Virus record (IMG/VR): IMGVR_UViG_3300015371_000025
Span: 3,405-67,404 of that record
From: a virus
Reading direction: 5' to 3' (one strand)
DNA length: 64,000 nt
Of the stretch, positions 2,928 through 51,935 are shown piece by piece. Every line of letters begins with the position of its first letter. The stretch's first letter is position 1. The translations under genes and the position numbers were made by a program. A model generated the notes under the pieces. That model was not told the origin of the DNA. It did not search any database and worked only from the letters and a program-made list of their open reading frames with translations.

Positions 2928-3224
2928 ATGAGCTTGACGATCATCACCAACAACGTCCCCCGCTTCACGGTCGACGCGTACGAACTGACGCCTGCCGAGC
3001 GGCGCGACTTCGACTATCTCGACTGGGACGCCATCGACCGGGGCGAGAGCGGGGCCACGTTCTTCCGCTACCGTGGCAACCTCTACGATCTCAGCGAGAT
3101 CCTCGCAGCGCCGGGCTCCCTCGCGCCGTGGGAGGGCTACGCCTCCGACAGCTACTTCTCGGGCATCGTCGTGCGCTTCACGAACGACTCCGAGGAGGTC
3201 ATCGTGGGGCGCTACTACTCCTGA
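2928..3224 (+). CDS. Phage hypothetical protein (FFRYRG-YDLSE / SDSYFSG motifs)
   Basis: Leaderless ATG of repeat 2890. Confidence 0.8.
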   Translation: MSLTIITNNVPRFTVDAYELTPAERRDFDYLDWDAIDRGESGATFFRYRGNLYDLSEILAAPGSLAPWEGYASDSYFSGIVVRFTNDSEEVIVGRYYS

Positions 3225-4077
3225 AACGCCCCCGAACGGGTGTCAACTAGCGGTTTACGCGTATCAGGGGGTCCCCGTGGCCCCCTGAACCACCCCCAAT
3301 GTGTGCGGAACGGCCCCTGAATGGGGCCGTTTCTGTAGGTACGTAGCGCGCGGAAGCGGCTAAATAGACAGCGCTGTTGTCCTGTAGGCACAGCCGTGAC
3401 CAATAACCTACAGGTGAGGGCCAGAAAGTAATAGACACCGCTGTAGGTGAAGGGCTCGAGCGGTGTAAACTATCGGTTTACATCTGAGATGCGCGGGGAA
3501 AGTAATGGACACGGCTGTCAGAGGGCGATTCCAGCCCTGTCTAATACCCTCCGGCGGGGGCTCGCGGGGGTGCGGGCGAGGCTAAATTGACACCGCTATC
3601 CCCGTGCTAGAGCCAAATGTGGGTGTGCAACGTGTAGGTAAATAGACACCGCTACAAGTGACAACTCTTAGTTGACACGGCTGTGCTGCGCGACGTAGGG
3701 ACCCGCACACCAGCAAGGGATAATGGACACCGCTGCGAGGGGCCGAGGGTGCGCGAGGCAAATTGACACCGCTGCAAATGGACACGGCTAGCTGCGGTGT
3801 GCGAGTGCGTGTCTATTACCCTAGTAGTAATGGACACTACTATTCGGGGGCGCGAATTGGGTCTCGATTAGTGTGTAGCTAATGGACACGGCCGCAGGAG
3901 GTGCTACTCGCGGGCGCCTATCGGGAGCGGGGCTCGGGCAAATAGACACCGCTGTAAACCAACGGTTGAATCATGTCGAAATTGTGCCCATTTGCAGGGA
4001 AAATAGACACTGCTACCAACGGTTGTCAATCCCTTGCTAAATGGACACCGCTGTAGGTAGGAAACCGGGGGCTCGAA
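3225..4077. promoter_or_regulatory. Non-coding array of AATNGACAC(C/G)GCT boxes without -10 elements, several in inverted pairs (operator/origin/recombination-site candidate)
   Basis: About 14 forward copies (3361, 3429, 3503, 3583, 3639, 3669, 3721, 3760, 3776, 3828, 3880, 3940, 4001, 4038) plus several reverse copies; no ORF with normal codon usage. Confidence 0.75.
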
Positions 4078-4284
4078 TAATCGACAGGAGTCCTAGCTAG
4101 CGTAGTCTACCGGGTGTCAGCAAGACAGAGAGCACGGGCGCCGGTCGACGGGGCGCCGAGCGAGTAAATAGACACCACACTCCTACAGAGTAAAGTACAG
4201 GGTGCAGCGCAGGACACCGGCCCGGATCACGCGGGACGGGGCGAGTAAATAGACACCGATCACCTACAGCGTAGAATGGACACC

Positions 4285-12669: not shown

Positions 12670-13566
12670 ATGCTGAACTTCACCGCTGACCGCACGAACG
12701 ACACCATCGTCGTCAACGACATCACCTACAACGTCGAGCGCGAGCACTGCCGCGACGGCATGAGCATCGAATTCACCATCGAGCAGTTCCCCGGTCTCGT
12801 CGGCAAGGTCGCCAACGAGGAGTACATCGAGTCGTGGATGTCTCCGCGTGACAGCGTGGACGGTCTGCTCGGCGTGATGGCGACGAGCTACCGTGGCTAC
12901 AGCTTCGGCGACGAGTCGCACGATCTCGTCGACTACGACGGCGGCTTCGAGATCCCGTGCGCCGACTGCAACGGCACCGGCGAGAGCTACGGACCGGACA
13001 ACGAGATCGGCGGCTTTCCCGTGCGACCGCCCGACTGCTTCTACTGCGGCGGCGAGGGAACGATCATCACGGATCCGGCCACGTGGGCTCGCAAGGTCCA
13101 CGGCGCTCGCGTGGTCCTGCCCGTGTTCGTCTACGAGCACAGCGGCATCACCATGAGCGTCGGCAAGGCCATCCCTACGGCGGCCAACCTTGGCCCCGGC
13201 GGAGACTTCGACGCCCGTGGCCGCAATCCCTTCGACGCGGCCGGATGGGACACATCGGCGGTCGGCATCATCTTCGACACGACCGAGACCCGCGAGGCGT
13301 GCGGGTGGGAGGATCGCTCCGACGAGGAGATCGAAAAGGATCTCCGCGCCGAGATCGACATCTACGATGACTTCCTACAGGGTATGGTCTACTACTACAC
13401 CGTGATCGACGAGGAGAGCGGCTACGACGAGGGGTGCGGCGCCATGTACGGCGAGGCGTACACCGAGGAGGAGTGCTTCGGCGTGATGGCTCACGCCATC
13501 GCTGCGCGGCTCGATGAGCAGGCAGAGCGCGCCGACGCGGCGGCTCGCGACATCGTGACCGTCTAA
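12670..13566 (+). CDS. Conserved acidic phage/MGE protein (YEHSGITMS, WDTS-VG, YDDFLQG motifs) with inserted DnaJ-type Zn finger
   Basis: Cassette; CADCNGTG and CFYCGGEG are CxxCxGxG repeats. Confidence 0.85.
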   Translation: MLNFTADRTNDTIVVNDITYNVEREHCRDGMSIEFTIEQFPGLVGKVANEEYIESWMSPRDSVDGLLGVMATSYRGYSFGDESHDLVDYDGGFEIPCADCNGTGESYGPDNEIGGFPVRPPDCFYCGGEGTIITDPATWARKVHGARVVLPVFVYEHSGITMSVGKAIPTAANLGPGGDFDARGRNPFDAAGWDTSAVGIIFDTTETREACGWEDRSDEEIEKDLRAEIDIYDDFLQGMVYYYTVIDEESGYDEGCGAMYGEAYTEEECFGVMAHAIAARLDEQAERADAAARDIVTV

Positions 13567-13601
13567 ATAGACACACAACTACAGAGAGGTACACTACTCC
13601 C

Positions 13602-13802
13602 ATGCGACACCCATTCATCTTCCTGCGCGACTGCGACAACTGCGAGGAGCCCAACACGCGCCTGTTCACCGACACGTGGACAGGCAAGGAGCTTTGCATC
13701 GAGTGCATCGCGCCGATCATCGACCACATCACCATGAGCCCCGAGGAGGGCGACAACCTGCCCAAGCTACTCAACGAGTCCGACCGCAAGGTGGAGGCAT
13801 GA
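13602..13802 (+). CDS. Small Zn-finger protein (CDNC...CIEC)
   Basis: Leaderless ATG of repeat 13564. Confidence 0.78.
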   Translation: MRHPFIFLRDCDNCEEPNTRLFTDTWTGKELCIECIAPIIDHITMSPEEGDNLPKLLNESDRKVEA

Positions 13803-14080
13803 GCGAGTTCCAGACGATTGTCACGCAGGGTAACGAGGTGAGCTACGAGCCGTGGACGGACGGACATGCGGTTGGCTTCAAGGTCACGCACATCCCGACG
13901 AACACGGTCGAGTACATCTACCTGAACCCGTCCGGCAACGACGACAACTCCGACTCGCCCAACGTCTTCATCTATCAGGGGACCGAGGGGCACCCCGACA
14001 AGGACCATCCGTACCACTACTACAGCGTGCTGGAAGAGGTCACGGCGGCCAAGCAGGGCGGATGGGAGGTGGAGGCGTAG
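13799..14080 (+). CDS. Hypothetical protein
   Basis: ATGA overlap, GGAGG SD. Confidence 0.78.
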   Translation: MSEFQTIVTQGNEVSYEPWTDGHAVGFKVTHIPTNTVEYIYLNPSGNDDNSDSPNVFIYQGTEGHPDKDHPYHYYSVLEEVTAAKQGGWEVEA

Positions 14081-14457
14081 TGCCCTTCATCGTCACGACC
14101 CGCATCCCGGCCGACCCCGACGACCACCACAACGCCATGTGCGAGGCGGCCGGGTTCAACACGGATGAGGTTCACCGCTACGCCGTGGCGACGCTGGAGG
14201 ACGCCCGATCCGCTGCGTACAGCATCATCAGCCAGAACGCGATCGGCCAGAGCGGGGACGCATGGCGCCGTGCAGCGAACCTCGTCAATCACCCGGCGTG
14301 GCCGTATCTGGAGCGCAGCACAGTCCCCCTGCCGGACGGCACCACCGTCGAGGCGCGACAGGTCACGTGGCGCCAGTTGGAGGCGAAGGCGGACATGCTC
14401 GACCATGACCACGACGCCGACGACACGGACGCGATCCTCGCGGCCTTCAATCAGTAA
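14080..14457 (+). CDS. Hypothetical protein, paralog family (AVATLxDAR)
   Basis: TAGTG overlap, GGAGG SD; similar to 11791. Confidence 0.78.
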   Translation: MPFIVTTRIPADPDDHHNAMCEAAGFNTDEVHRYAVATLEDARSAAYSIISQNAIGQSGDAWRRAANLVNHPAWPYLERSTVPLPDGTTVEARQVTWRQLEAKADMLDHDHDADDTDAILAAFNQ

Positions 14458-14493
14458 ATAGACACACTCCTACAGAGAGGTAAACTACATCCC

Positions 14494-14682
14494 ATGAACA
14501 GCCCCACGCAAATCCAAGTCAAGCGCGACAAACTCGGCGCCCGTGACGCGATCGAGCGAATCAACGCGACGATTGTGAACATCGAGGACGAGCGCTCGAT
14601 GCCCGGCCACTGGCAGGACATCGCCGACTACGCCTACGTCCTGCACAGCCGCGCCAACAGCATCGCGAGGCTCGACCGATGA
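14494..14682 (+). CDS. Hypothetical early protein
   Basis: Leaderless ATG of repeat 14455. Confidence 0.75.
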   Translation: MNSPTQIQVKRDKLGARDAIERINATIVNIEDERSMPGHWQDIADYAYVLHSRANSIARLDR

Positions 14683-15191
14683 CCACGCAAGAGGGCAAGG
14701 CCCAGAGCATCATCCAGACTCTCGTCGCGATCGAACCCGGCGACACGTCGACCGGCTTCAAGCGAATCACGTCCGAGCAGGGCGACGCCATCGCGCGGCT
14801 CTTTGACGGAGACTTCGAGTTGTTCCGCAAGCTGGACGAACAGCCGGGGCTCTACACGTCTCCCTTCTACCACGGGGTCGAGGGTGACTACTCCTACGAC
14901 TCATGGCACTACAAGCTGCGGCAGGCCCGCAACGACGCGAGCAACATGTTCTTCGAGATCCTCGCGTCGGACCGGCGCGAGCGCGAGGAGCGTGAGCGCA
15001 AGGCGGCGGCAAAGCCGCCCACGGCCACGGTCAACGGCTCGGTCATGAAGACTTCCGCAGGCTACGAATGCTGCCTGTGGATCGAGGTCGACGGCGCACA
15101 GATCGACGGCGAGGTGTACGGCTACGGTCGACACCCTTCCGACGCCATCGCATGCGCCGCCGAAGAGATCGACTACTCGCCGATCTCCTGA
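14679..15191 (+). CDS. Hypothetical protein
   Basis: ATGA overlap; GC3-rich codons. Confidence 0.78.
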   Translation: MTTQEGKAQSIIQTLVAIEPGDTSTGFKRITSEQGDAIARLFDGDFELFRKLDEQPGLYTSPFYHGVEGDYSYDSWHYKLRQARNDASNMFFEILASDRREREERERKAAAKPPTATVNGSVMKTSAGYECCLWIEVDGAQIDGEVYGYGRHPSDAIACAAEEIDYSPIS

Positions 15192-15267
15192 AAGATTGCG
15201 ATCCCCGCCGGGAGTCGGGTGAGCGCAATAAATGGACACTGTAGTTCGGGGGTGCTACAGTTCCATC

Positions 15268-15727
15268 TCCCCACCTGACGCGGGGATCAAAGAGTCGGAC
15301 TACGAGAGCCGAACGCTCAGGGCACAGCGAAGGCAGACAATAGACCCGAGGGTGGCGCTGCACCCGGAGGCGGCACAGCAAGGTGCGGCTGGTCGAGAAT
15401 CCCCACCGTCAATGGCACCACGATCCACGATAGGCCGGATGGCCGACTGTAGGCGGCTTCCTTCTCTAGCAGGAGGGACGGCTAAGGATCGGCGCGAGTT
15501 CTTATGGGAGGCTCGCGTGGCGGTGGGGCAGAACTTGCCCGTGGTAGCAGGCAAGCCAAGCCGGGCATCGCGACCGGCCGCTGGTGAAGTGGGTATCCGG
15601 AGTCGCGACCGGAACGTCTCCAATCCCCAGGCGAAGCCAAAGGGAGGGCCGGGTACCACGAACCCCGGCAACACAAACTTGCGGGGTCGGGCCGGAGGCG
15701 TTGGGGAACACAGCCCGGCCCCGCAAG
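15268..15727 (+). ncRNA. Candidate large structured non-coding RNA (~460 nt)
   Basis: Own promoter (TGGACA-17-TACAGT at 15233-15261), no leaderless ATG, atypical codon usage in all frames; helices 15401-15411/15518-15528, 15493-15500/15510-15517, 15534-39/15550-55, 15568-74/15602-08, 15648-53/15664-69, 15678-92/15713-27. Confidence 0.62.
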
Positions 15728-15795
15728 TAATAGACACTCTTCTGCTACAGACTAACATGTAGCTACAAACTTCACTCCGAACGAAAGGACACTCC

Positions 15796-16047
15796 ATGCC
15801 CGACACCATGAACATCAATCAGGTGCGCACCGCCGCACTGAACACGCCTGACCACAACTCGGCTCTCCTCTGCGCCATCGTCTACCTTGGCGACTCCATC
15901 CGCGAGGCTTGCAGCGACATCGGTCCGGCCATCGCCGACAGCGGTCGCAGCACGTCGGCCGAGCTTGGCGATGTGGCGCTCTCGCTGCGCGATCTCGGTC
16001 GCGAGTTCGCGGGCATCACCGCCGCTGTCGACGGGATCGGCAAGTAG
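15796..16047 (+). CDS. Hypothetical protein
   Basis: Leadered unit, GAAAGGA SD. Confidence 0.75.
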   Translation: MPDTMNINQVRTAALNTPDHNSALLCAIVYLGDSIREACSDIGPAIADSGRSTSAELGDVALSLRDLGREFAGITAAVDGIGK

Positions 16048-16695
16048 ATGTCCCGCTACGTCGGCGGTGTCGAGGGCAAGGGTCGCATGGTCCAGCGCGT
16101 CGGCACGCAGCGCAGCGGCATGAAGGTCCACGCCGCGAGCGGCGAGAGCCGAGTCGACGTGGAGCTTCACGGCGGTCCCGGCTTCGACTGGGCCAACATC
16201 AGCATCTACGGCGAGCGCGGACGGCACCATCTGCCCGGCTTCAACCTGGAGCTTGTGGCGGCTGCACTCGACTCGGGCGACCCAAAGACCCTGCGCATCT
16301 GGAACCGCATCCAGAGCGACATCCGGCGCCTGCACGACGACGCACCGAAGGCGATCAAGCGTGCCGAACGCCGTCGCCGGAACGAGGAGGAGGCCGCCCA
16401 GCGCGAGCACGCGCTCAGGCTGGAGACTCAGCGCGCCTTCGCCGAGACCATCACGGACGCCGAGGCCGAGCACTTCATCGCGCTCACCGGACTGACGAAC
16501 GACGAGAGCGACCGCGAGGCGCTCCTCGCTAGGGCCAAGCACGCTGCGGCGAGCCCCGAAGTCATGGAGCCCCGCCGCAAGGACGGGCACCTGTTCGTGG
16601 CCACCATCATCGGCATCGGCTGGGACAGCAGCGTCAAGTTCCTGAACCTGACGGACGGCATCGAGGTCGATCTCGATGCAGTCCCCGTAGTCTAA
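16048..16695 (+). CDS. Hypothetical protein
   Basis: Abuts the upstream stop; ends in repeat TAA. Confidence 0.8.
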   Translation: MSRYVGGVEGKGRMVQRVGTQRSGMKVHAASGESRVDVELHGGPGFDWANISIYGERGRHHLPGFNLELVAAALDSGDPKTLRIWNRIQSDIRRLHDDAPKAIKRAERRRRNEEEAAQREHALRLETQRAFAETITDAEAEHFIALTGLTNDESDREALLARAKHAAASPEVMEPRRKDGHLFVATIIGIGWDSSVKFLNLTDGIEVDLDAVPVV

Positions 16696-16731
16696 ATAGA
16701 CACCTACCTACAGATAGGAGATACTACTCCC

Positions 16732-17169
16732 ATGAAGCGAATCGTGCTGTACCTAGACCTCGTTGCGCCCGAGCAGGACGAAGCTCTGCTGCGCGACCCC
16801 GAGTCGGGCCGCATCGTGCTCGACGCCGTGAACGACTACCTGCCCGAGCCGTTCTCACTGATCGACGCCGGTGGCGATGATCTGCTCGCGCTGCACATGA
16901 TGCTCTACCCCGAGCGCTACCCGCGCTCGGCTCAGCCCGATCACGTCTACTGGGACAACTTCGATTCCGAGGCCGACGCAGACTACGGCGAGATCGAAGA
17001 AAACGCCTCCGTCGAGGACATCGCTGCGGCCGTCGAGGCGGCTACCGCCAAAGCCGAGGCCGAGTGGCGCGAGTCTCCCTTCGAGTGGAACAGCGGCACG
17101 ATCGAGTGGGTCGGCACCTATCTCGAACAGCGACTCGCTGGCACGAGCCACCCCGGCTACAAGTCCTAA
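16732..17169 (+). CDS. Acidic hypothetical early protein
   Basis: Cassette between repeats 16693 and 17167. Confidence 0.82.
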   Translation: MKRIVLYLDLVAPEQDEALLRDPESGRIVLDAVNDYLPEPFSLIDAGGDDLLALHMMLYPERYPRSAQPDHVYWDNFDSEADADYGEIEENASVEDIAAAVEAATAKAEAEWRESPFEWNSGTIEWVGTYLEQRLAGTSHPGYKS

Positions 17170-17204
17170 ATAGACACACCCCTACAGAGAGGTACACTAT
17201 GACC

Positions 17205-17912
17205 ATGAAGCTCAACAACGGCACCACCCAATTCAACATCGACGAGAGCATCGCAGGCCACCTGCTCTGGGAGGCCATGCGCGACTTCCGCGAGGCTTAC
17301 GCTGCGCTGACGCAGGCCGCCCACCAGGGCGTGACCGATCTCGAAGATGCCGACACGCCGGACGACAGTGCCATCCGCAAGTTCGCGGTCGCCGCTGCCG
17401 AAGCCTCCTCCAAGATCACCGAGGCGCTCCAGCGCGCTCGCCTGATGCACTACGGCGACGTGTACGACGAGCTGATCAACCGCGAGGATCTCGGCCCCGA
17501 GGTCGACGGCCATCGCAAGACGGTCTACACCAAGCTCAGCATGGCCGACAAGAGCGTCACCCACATCCGCGAGATCAACACCGGCATGAGCCTGCTCGCC
17601 GGTCTCAACGTCTGGGACGACGACAAGGGCAAGCGCCGTCAGCCGATCGTCGCGATCAACACCGAGGGTCTGCGGCGTGAGTTCACCTACGGCGACGACG
17701 GCGGCATGCCGATCATCGACGTGGACATCAACGACGCCGACATCTTCGATGACGCTGGCGCTGGCGACAAGATCCGCTCGGACGCCGAGTCGATGAAGCA
17801 CCGGCTGATGCAGGCCCACATGGCCGCGCAGGGCAAGGGCGACCAGGGCGCGTTCGACGTGTGGAACGAGGTCGCGGACATCATCGGAATCAAGCGCGAG
17901 GAGGAGTCGTAA
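17205..17912 (+). CDS. Hypothetical early protein
   Basis: ATG 6 nt after TACACT of repeat 17167. Confidence 0.82.
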   Translation: MKLNNGTTQFNIDESIAGHLLWEAMRDFREAYAALTQAAHQGVTDLEDADTPDDSAIRKFAVAAAEASSKITEALQRARLMHYGDVYDELINREDLGPEVDGHRKTVYTKLSMADKSVTHIREINTGMSLLAGLNVWDDDKGKRRQPIVAINTEGLRREFTYGDDGGMPIIDVDINDADIFDDAGAGDKIRSDAESMKHRLMQAHMAAQGKGDQGAFDVWNEVADIIGIKREEES

Positions 17913-28246: not shown

Positions 28247-28299
28247 ACACGGACTACAGACTGTTGTAGTCTTCAATAACTCAACCAAGGGAGCCGACA

Positions 28300-50876: not shown

Positions 50877-51935
50877 TTAGCGTATCGCGGGCTTCTTTGG
50901 GGACCAGCGGCGCTTCACTCGCTCGCGGGCATCGCTGTAGGAGTAATCCGGTCGGATCTCCTTCGTCATGCGGATGCCGTTCGAGTCGTCGAGCGCCTGA
51001 ATATCGCCTCGGAAATCTTCCTGACAGACCTTCTTGTAGCTACAGAACTTGCACGGCTCATAGGACCACTTCCAGCCGTGGGGATGGCCGAAACGCGTCG
51101 TGCGCTTCCCCGGCTTGTTCTCTGCGAGCAGCTCCTCCTCCCAGAGAGCCCGGAAGCGCTTGAGCTGCTCGACGCCGGTCTCGAAGAACGTCGCATCGTA
51201 CTGGACCCAGAACTCTGCGGTGGGTATGGGCTCGCGAGGATCGTACTTCTGATCCCTGGCCATGTAGTAGATGAAGCCGCCGTCGCAGAGCTTGAGATCG
51301 CTCCACAGGTCGCCGTTCTCCTGAGCGGCACGGATGAGGCCCATCTGCGTCTTGAGCTGCTTGACGTGCTTCTCGTCGGGGCCACGAAGTCCCAGCAACA
51401 TGTTGCGGATGTCGCTCTCGTGCTTCGTCTTGATCTCGACCGGCGTCGCCTTCTTGCGCAGCACGATGGCGGAGTCGACGGAGCCCGTCAGCATCAGCTC
51501 GGGGATCTCGAAGCCGGTCTGCACCTCGGCGTCCGGCGGCGCCGAGATCAGCATGCCGCTGCCACGATGCAGCTTGTCGACGAGATCGGTCTCGAGCGCC
51601 TTGCCGGTGATGGCCGTCAGGTGAAGCCTGCGCGACGGCTCGCTCTCAGCCGTGAAGTCGGCCATGCGGTAGACAGCCTCGCGGGAGCAGGCCATCGGAT
51701 CGTCGCCGGGGAACTGGCTCGCGTGGAAGGAGACGTGCCAGGGGTGGCCGTGCGGGCTGTCGTCGAGCTGATCGCGCCAGCTCTCGCGCAATGCACGTCT
51801 GTAGGAGTCTTCGATGATGGGCTCAAGCGTGCGGACAAGCTGGAGCCTGCTGAACAGCTCCTTGCGCGTCAGCCGCTTGAGCCCCATCGTGGCCCGCAGG
51901 CGCAGCGCCATGACTTCCTTGCGGTCGTACTTCAC
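50877..51935 (-). CDS. Cas4/RecB-like PD-(D/E)XK exonuclease
   Basis: FHASQF...CSRE, TGSVD, VEIKT, QLKTQM, C-terminal CKFCSYKKVC. Confidence 0.82.
   Translation of the reverse strand: MKYDRKEVMALRLRATMGLKRLTRKELFSRLQLVRTLEPIIEDSYRRALRESWRDQLDDSPHGHPWHVSFHASQFPGDDPMACSREAVYRMADFTAESEPSRRLHLTAITGKALETDLVDKLHRGSGMLISAPPDAEVQTGFEIPELMLTGSVDSAIVLRKKATPVEIKTKHESDIRNMLLGLRGPDEKHVKQLKTQMGLIRAAQENGDLWSDLKLCDGGFIYYMARDQKYDPREPIPTAEFWVQYDATFFETGVEQLKRFRALWEEELLAENKPGKRTTRFGHPHGWKWSYEPCKFCSYKKVCQEDFRGDIQALDDSNGIRMTKEIRPDYSYSDARERVKRRWSPKKPAIR

Follow-up and report, generated by a model that had tools for sequence, protein, structure and literature searches.

In the early region of an uncultured phage, where promoter copies stand directly in front of small protein genes, one promoter is followed by about 460 nt that hold no recognizable gene. 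The locus therefore raises the question whether this unit makes an RNA that works as such, or is a protein gene of odd composition, a control element for the genes downstream, a DNA-level element or the remains of a lost cassette. A sequence-only reading of the region had proposed a structured non-coding RNA. In our analysis the non-coding unit is real and an orphan, and the evidence for its RNA is direct but thin. We lean, with a little more belief than doubt, towards a genuine non-coding transcription unit of the early array whose RNA would act in trans.

The analysed DNA, referred to here as the window, comprises 64,000 nt (bases 3405-67404) of the linear 67.4-kb IMG/VR virus record IMGVR_UViG_3300015371_000025, which has an estimated completeness of 66% and a GC content of about 0.64. 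Its minus-strand half codes for a portal/MuF-like protein, a terminase-large-subunit-like protein and a large DNA polymerase, and the plus-strand half (1 to ~32 kb) consists of small, densely arrayed genes. The closest relatives according to the terminase-like protein were uncultured viral contigs with at most 62% amino acid identity (24 loci, 37-62%); a single match at 25.9% was obtained in the GenBank phage collection, and no prophage relative of this protein was found among 185,579 species genomes. No tyrosine integrase was present in the record. The promoter type and the leaderless layout described below would be compatible with a high-GC Gram-positive host.

Most units of the array are headed by the repeat TAAATAGACAC-N-CTACAGAGAGG-TACACT. 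A promoter census with the pattern T[ACG]GACA, 16-18 nt, [TG]ANNNT returned 44 promoter-like sites on the + strand of 1-32.5 kb, and zero sites were found on the minus strand of the same region with a slightly narrower pattern. In its usual form the promoter has the -35 box TAGACA (38 of 44 sites) and a 16-nt spacer (37 of 44). At 30 of the 44 sites, a codon-biased ORF begins with its ATG 6-7 nt past the -10 box, which implies leaderless mRNAs; judging from this arrangement, nearly the whole early array should consist of leaderless mRNAs, each with its own near-identical promoter. At the remaining sites the leaders are mostly 0-37 nt long, and a few sites lie in ORF-poor blocks near 2.0, 4.1, 26.3 and 28.2 kb. 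Further stretches without codon periodicity, or with a promoter far from its gene, are 3151-4260, an ORF-poor block of ~1.1 kb with promoters at 4081 and 4169, and 2019-2176, where the gene after promoter 2019-2046 is 130 nt away. Strong inverted repeats (at least 12 nt, within 60 nt) are rare, with only nine in 1-32000, so a stem-loop is absent from most units. Of three relatives examined in full (G001, G002 and G008), none contained AATAGACAC or CTACAGAGAGG (0 copies each).

The promoter copy in question, described earlier as TGGACA-17-TACAGT with an extended TG, was confirmed (Table 1); four promoter sites were found in 14400-16800, compared to 0.3 expected from shuffles. It is the sole site of the 44 without a codon-biased ORF within 400 nt, and four features set it apart from the array form: the -35 box reads TGGACA where TAGACA is usual, the spacer has 17 nt, the -10 is extended by TG, and a perfect dyad is present. 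This promoter holds the sole copy of the motif CTGTAG-N(4-16)-CTACAG in the 64-kb window, and the dyad may represent an operator. Perfect dyads derived from the array's CTACAG core are present both in the cassette promoter and in the promoter that follows the RNA body; the form found at the downstream promoter, GCTACA-N8-TGTAGC, has one additional site at 28254. The two dyads may be operators that distinguish both units from the remaining array. By analogy with the leaderless cassettes, the RNA is predicted to start near 15268 and would be read from the + strand.

Table 1. Positions of the ORF-free cassette, its predicted RNA elements and its neighbours in the window.
Feature	Position	Strand	Description
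Upstream protein gene	14679-15191	+	170 aa; GC3 0.88
Cassette promoter	15233-15261	+	-35 TGGACA at 15233-38, 17-nt spacer, TG at 15253-54, -10 TACAGT at 15256-61
Perfect 7-bp dyad	15238-15261		ACTGTAG-N10-CTACAGT; overlies spacer and -10
ORF-free body	15262-15728	+	~460 nt; no codon periodicity; ends at hairpin
Predicted 5' hairpin	15267-15286	+	5 bp, UCCCC/GGGGA; from the MFE of 15265-15470
Region covered by RNA-run contigs	15279-15463		Two soil metatranscriptome runs; contigs strand-blind
Predicted nested core	15366-15621	+	Pair probability >0.9 in the partition function
Predicted helices of the nested core	15366-71/15616-21, 15387-95/15571-79, 15401-10/15519-28, 15421-26/15486-91, 15493-98/15512-17	+	Partition function
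Terminal GC-rich hairpin	15677-15728	+	16-bp stem, 20-nt loop, no U-tract; adjoins next cassette
Promoter of next cassette	15731-15758	+	TAGACA-16-TAACAT; own dyad GCTACA-N8-TGTAGC at 15744-15763
Downstream protein gene	15796-16047	+	83 aa; GC3 0.84; 37-nt leader

The proteins encoded on both sides of the cassette had no Pfam and no PHROG match. The upstream protein has four homologues of 99-107 aa, which match 52-56% of its length with 55-79% identity, and its N-terminal ~100 aa belong to a family of small proteins of about 100 aa. The upstream protein looks like a fusion, as its last ~70 aa (residues ~101-170, with a Cys-rich stretch) have no counterpart in these four homologues.

The cassette itself does not code for protein in the manner of its neighbours. 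All three codon phases are flat over about 15200-15780; across 15240-15719 the GC per phase was 0.58-0.72 in all phases, compared to a third-phase GC of 0.83-0.93 in the flanking genes. Even in 90-nt windows starting at 15430-15640 the phase spread was 0.03-0.20, while the coding median was 0.37. Both strands of 15240-15800 together contain eight ORFs of at least 12 aa with GC3 values of 0.59-0.72, against 0.84-0.89 in five neighbouring genes. The earlier claim that no ORF with the phage's codon bias follows the promoter is borne out by these values. The absence of any start codon, claimed at the same time, holds in a narrower sense: AUG and GUG codons exist, but none stands at the leaderless position and none has the codon bias. 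The base composition of the body (G 0.356, C 0.303, A 0.217, T 0.124) shows G>C and A>T; in four coding comparison stretches, the two flanking genes and two wider blocks, C exceeds G.

Two long frames nevertheless run through the region, a stop-free + frame of 176 codons (15232-15762), which is a predicted gene in the gene calling of the source record, and a minus frame of 172 codons. Both being open, and the first being recorded as a predicted protein, a protein gene of unusual composition (176 aa or 172 aa) had to be considered; we regard it as exceedingly improbable. The two frames have GC3 values of 0.63 and 0.62 together with high GC2, and the + frame begins with an ATG inside the -35 box, a place that a transcript from the cassette promoter would not include. 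The + frame forms a singleton cluster without a Pfam family, and searches with it recovered no protein of 96-308 aa other than itself and none of 30-95 aa; the minus frame had 0 matches in 1.84 billion representatives. Thus neither a genome-like codon-position bias nor detectable relatives were found for a protein product.

Known RNA families did not account for the unit either. The search with Rfam 15, which includes GOLLD, ROOL, 6S, RNase P, tmRNA, group I/II introns and HEARO, gave 0 hits at gathering score in the whole window. At E<=10, the region 15100-15900 matched only mir-4018, a junk miRNA hit (E 6.9) that scores 15 bits where the gathering score is 66. ARAGORN found 0 tRNA or tmRNA genes in the window, so the earlier statement that tRNA, tmRNA and RNase P signatures are absent agrees with both programs. 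No reverse transcriptase (PF00078) was found in the 67.4-kb record, estimated to be 66% complete, which argues against the template RNA of a retron or DGR. Compared to control windows, no motif was over-represented in the region, and the repetition of CCACGA (three copies) and of other k-mers was no higher. The motif GGAGG occurs five times, against 0.72 expected from the window density and about 1.6 by hand arithmetic from the local base composition; in the partition function, four of the five copies are paired with a mean probability of 0.63-0.99. The idea of a ribosome sponge was dropped as unsupported.

A transcript can also serve as an R-loop primer at a replication origin, as RNA II does in ColE1. 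A promoter-driven, G-rich (G>C) and ORF-free transcript of ~460 nt would suit such a DNA-level element, but tandem repeats and iterons were absent from the locus, no AT-rich stretch was seen (GC 0.60-0.68), and the cumulative GC skew has no turning point near 15 kb, its minimum lying around 36-40 kb. We consider an origin at this position very improbable.

With regard to structure, every helix named in the sequence-only reading exists, including the long-range pair 15401-11/15518-28 and the terminal stem, but its description of the region as packed with helices did not stand up to the comparison with the phage's own background. The GC-corrected MFE lies 0.70 SD below the mean (-0.70 SD) and ranks 40th among 159 same-size windows of the same phage, and uninterrupted helices of 11 bp or more are present in 122 of the 159 windows. 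Compared to shuffles, the MFE of the whole region had a z of -1.95 on the + strand and -2.18 on the - strand, and the ensemble diversity ranked 13th of 80. The 5' 206 nt (15265-15470), the part to which the RNA contigs described below belong, fold more weakly than shuffles (z +1.39), and the sub-domains 15395-15535 and 15530-15730 gave z values of -2.65 and -2.11. The folding of the candidate is therefore ordinary for a high-GC genome, and a special structure is not supported.

The only element that is unusual by folding is the terminal hairpin. Five of the 159 windows contain a helix of 15 bp or more without interruption, and one of these five holds this hairpin itself, which is also one of the nine strong inverted repeats of 1-32000. 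Its stem, given before as 15 bp (15678-92/15713-27), is present with a slightly different extent, 16 nt at 15677-92/15713-28 with 94% complementarity. It is probably the 3' end or terminator of the unit. The hairpin is absent from the terminator scan, which demands a T-run, and with the U-tract lacking, termination at this place is an assumption.

As a hairpin without U-tract makes some read-through plausible, the unit might alternatively act in cis, as a long leader, attenuator or insulator that governs read-through to the genes from 15796 onward. A 9-nt perfect inverted repeat (15200-15208/15280-15288) that brackets the cassette promoter could form in read-through RNA coming from upstream, which would also suit such a role. 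The downstream gene, on the other hand, has its own promoter and its own short leader, a gene start lies within 400 nt at 43 of the 44 promoter sites with no comparable ORF-free stretch at any of them, and no riboswitch or leader family was matched in the Rfam search. A cis-acting element thus appears improbable to us. The inverted repeat itself could serve for the processing of read-through RNA or could be coincidental.

The cassette was then sought in sequencing runs. A word-index search with 14679-16695 listed 21 runs, 20 of which contained part of the stretch. Three of the listed runs are soil metatranscriptomes (X17, X18 and X19), with a word share of 0.06 each; runs X4-X16, X19 and X20 contained 5-15% of the sampled words. 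Four runs, two from rhizosphere DNA and two from soil RNA (X17 and X18), were aligned to 13500-17500 at 80% likeness. Both rhizosphere DNA runs had 100%-identical pieces over the whole stretch, and the phage was therefore present in both. Of the RNA runs, X17 yielded a 159-nt contig on 15279-15437 with 0 differences. The contig from X18, 186 nt long and lying on 15279-15463, had 0 other letters and one gap, a G missing at 15437. These were the only contigs that were at least 99% alike (1 of 12 aligned in X17 and 1 of 11 in X18); both fall within the candidate, and nothing else in the 4 kb was matched at this level in X17 or X18. The remaining contigs (11 in X17 and 10 in X18) were all less than 95% alike, and those listed among them were fragments of 36-41 nt with 4-8 differences.

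That the same 185 nt out of 4 kb appeared twice is unlike DNA carry-over, and we therefore read these contigs as RNA from the cassette. The word depth of the two contigs, 3 and 4.3, corresponds to a handful of reads, and contigs show no strand, level or ends. X17 and X18 have different sample and study codes, possibly within one campaign. As contigs drop thin cover, the gap in high-identity matches over 15464-15727 is uninformative on the length of the RNA. Of the discrete early transcript of ~460 nt that was to be looked for, a portion (at least 15279-15463) was seen, in strand-blind contigs of low depth. Both contigs start at 15279, about 11 nt past the predicted start; such a coincidence is a weak hint, and the common start could be a real 5' end. 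This start lies one base ahead of the 3' arm (15280-15288) of the 9-nt inverted repeat. The variant of X18, a single observation, falls into the predicted tetraloop of a GGCC-GGAU-GGCC hairpin and is consistent with the modelled fold.

Searches for homologues left the cassette without relatives. Distant blastn of 15200-15800 against 50,697 phage records found nothing, and searches with the flanking proteins against IMG/VR, and with the upstream one against the phage collection, revealed no homologous locus of the cassette. When 15192-15795 was compared by BLAST with the entire records of 12 phages, ten of them chosen via the terminase-like protein (24 loci) and two via the family of the upstream protein, only chance matches of 12-35 nt resulted. 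Nhmmer against the three fully fetched relatives detected no homologue, a single-sequence covariance model of 15395-15535 recovered only itself over 671 kb of related loci, and no paralogue was found within the phage. With the 176-codon frame as DNA probe, the sole match in genome, viral and metagenome contigs was L035, which is the same phage (100% identical over 3759 nt). The search for homologues suggested earlier thus brought up none beyond this identical copy, and likewise none that conserves an amino acid frame. Literature searches found nothing describing this RNA or the promoter array.

This orphan status in every collection searched, together with the ordinary folding statistics, would also be expected of an empty or decayed cassette that was shuffled by recombination between promoter repeats and kept a working promoter, its RNA being a functionless by-product. 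Signs of turnover in the array, namely the repeated promoters and a contig of DNA run X1 that skips 13596-14453 (with 30 letters on one side), point in the same direction. The unit, however, shows no residual codon periodicity even in 90-nt windows, neither of its long frames has protein relatives, and its G>C composition is unlike the phage's coding DNA. Nor would decay readily explain a rare perfect hairpin exactly at the boundary, a promoter dyad found nowhere else in the window, or the fact that the cassette is the sole part of 4 kb seen at high identity in the RNA runs. A weak further argument comes from run X3, in which the pieces over 15342-15506 and 15606-15795 show 0 differences while the flanking pieces show 9 and 3; the differences are clustered, and 32 of 123 pieces were listed. 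Taken together, we judge a decayed cassette to be rather unlikely.

The X1 contig joins 13595 to 14454 and so leaves out 858 nt between two promoter copies. It could stem from a strain without that unit, which would fit cassette loss by repeat recombination, or it could be an artefact, as the shorter side of the joint has only 30 letters. Another joint, 14443/16653 with 13 intervening letters, was seen at 80% likeness and may belong to a different organism.

For the non-coding unit that we favour, the following course may be proposed. A host-type, sigma-70-like promoter at 15233-61 would start an RNA near 15268 that contains no translatable gene and would extend for ~460 nt to the GC hairpin 15677-15728, behind which the next promoter follows at once. 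RNA of at least the 5' part (15279-15463) accumulates in soil and is detectable where neighbouring phage mRNAs are not. We infer that the product acts in trans as RNA, binding and titrating a host or phage protein; besides the full-length RNA, a shorter, stable species with the same 5' end may be active. In its layout, the unit would be a functional analogue of the ~500-nt Pleft RNA of the phages L5, D29 and StarStuff. A more far-reaching version is rather doubtful in our view. In it, the cassette would be the first case of a novel class of phage RNAs of ~460 nt, made from a host-type promoter with a unique operator of its own. No other product of this phage would be as abundant in soil, and as a decoy or sponge the RNA would tie up a host machine, be it RNA polymerase, the ribosome, an RNase or a defence protein, in parallel to the unexplained, toxic Pleft RNA yet unrelated to it.

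Arrays of small early units are known from T4-type phages, in which PeSL (promoter-early stem-loop) cassettes flank protein ORFs, as described in the available parts of PMC2839356 and PMC4122927. The array studied here resembles those PeSL arrays, as far as these parts describe them, in its small early units, near-identical promoter copies and hints of unit gain or loss. It differs in that the repeat is a promoter of host type joined directly to a leaderless ATG, and in belonging to another phage lineage. Also, while PeSLs in that description flank protein ORFs, this unit has a stem-loop without an ORF, and most units of its array have none. A promoter-cassette array may thus hold RNA genes besides protein genes.

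Large, ornate RNAs of more than 400 nt that are often borne by phages or prophages are represented by GOLLD and ROOL (RF01998 and RF03087), whose function is unexplained according to the excerpt of PMC12286853 at hand. The candidate is likewise large (>400 nt), non-coding and phage-borne; unlike these RNAs, it matched neither model at gathering score or at E<=10.

The closest published analogue, by organisation, is the Pleft RNA of the Cluster A mycobacteriophages. The available portion of PMC5712189 reports that L5, D29 and StarStuff produce from the early promoter Pleft a transcript of ~500 nt without any ORF of more than ~30 codons, and that at every time point no phage RNA is more abundant. 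The Pleft transcripts stop at a defined region in about 90% of cases, and the RNA is processed to species of 100-400 nt with a common 5' end; the Pleft region is toxic to M. smegmatis, and the function of the RNA is left unexplained in that portion (PMC5712189).

Like the Pleft RNA of L5 and D29 in that account, the cassette presents an ORF-free stretch of ~500 nt right after an early promoter of a high-GC phage, and like the L5 RNA its body is richer in G than in C and in A than in T on the strand of the RNA. The two are dissimilar in sequence: blastn against the phage collection gave no match, nhmmer at maximum sensitivity gave none in the L5 region of the Pleft transcript (51,140-51,672), and the best covariance-model score on L5 was 7.1 bits. 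The L5 RNA is located at the genome end, as far as described, whereas the cassette lies inside a promoter-cassette array. In the same account the L5/D29 RNA stands far above the neighbouring messages, while of the cassette only the 5' 185 nt were seen in RNA runs, in low-depth contigs; and for L5 host toxicity and northern data are reported, while the cassette is known here from sequence and contigs. The cassette therefore resembles the Pleft RNA in organisation and is not a member of its family.

Years of work have left the function of abundant early non-coding RNAs in phages of high-GC soil bacteria, exemplified by L5 and D29, without an explanation, and an orphan such as this one is a useful lead that is so far silent on what such RNAs do. 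If our reading is true, the cassette would be an unrelated second example, from an uncultured phage and detectable in soil RNA, which would suggest that such RNAs are a general device of early infection rather than the quirk of one phage cluster.
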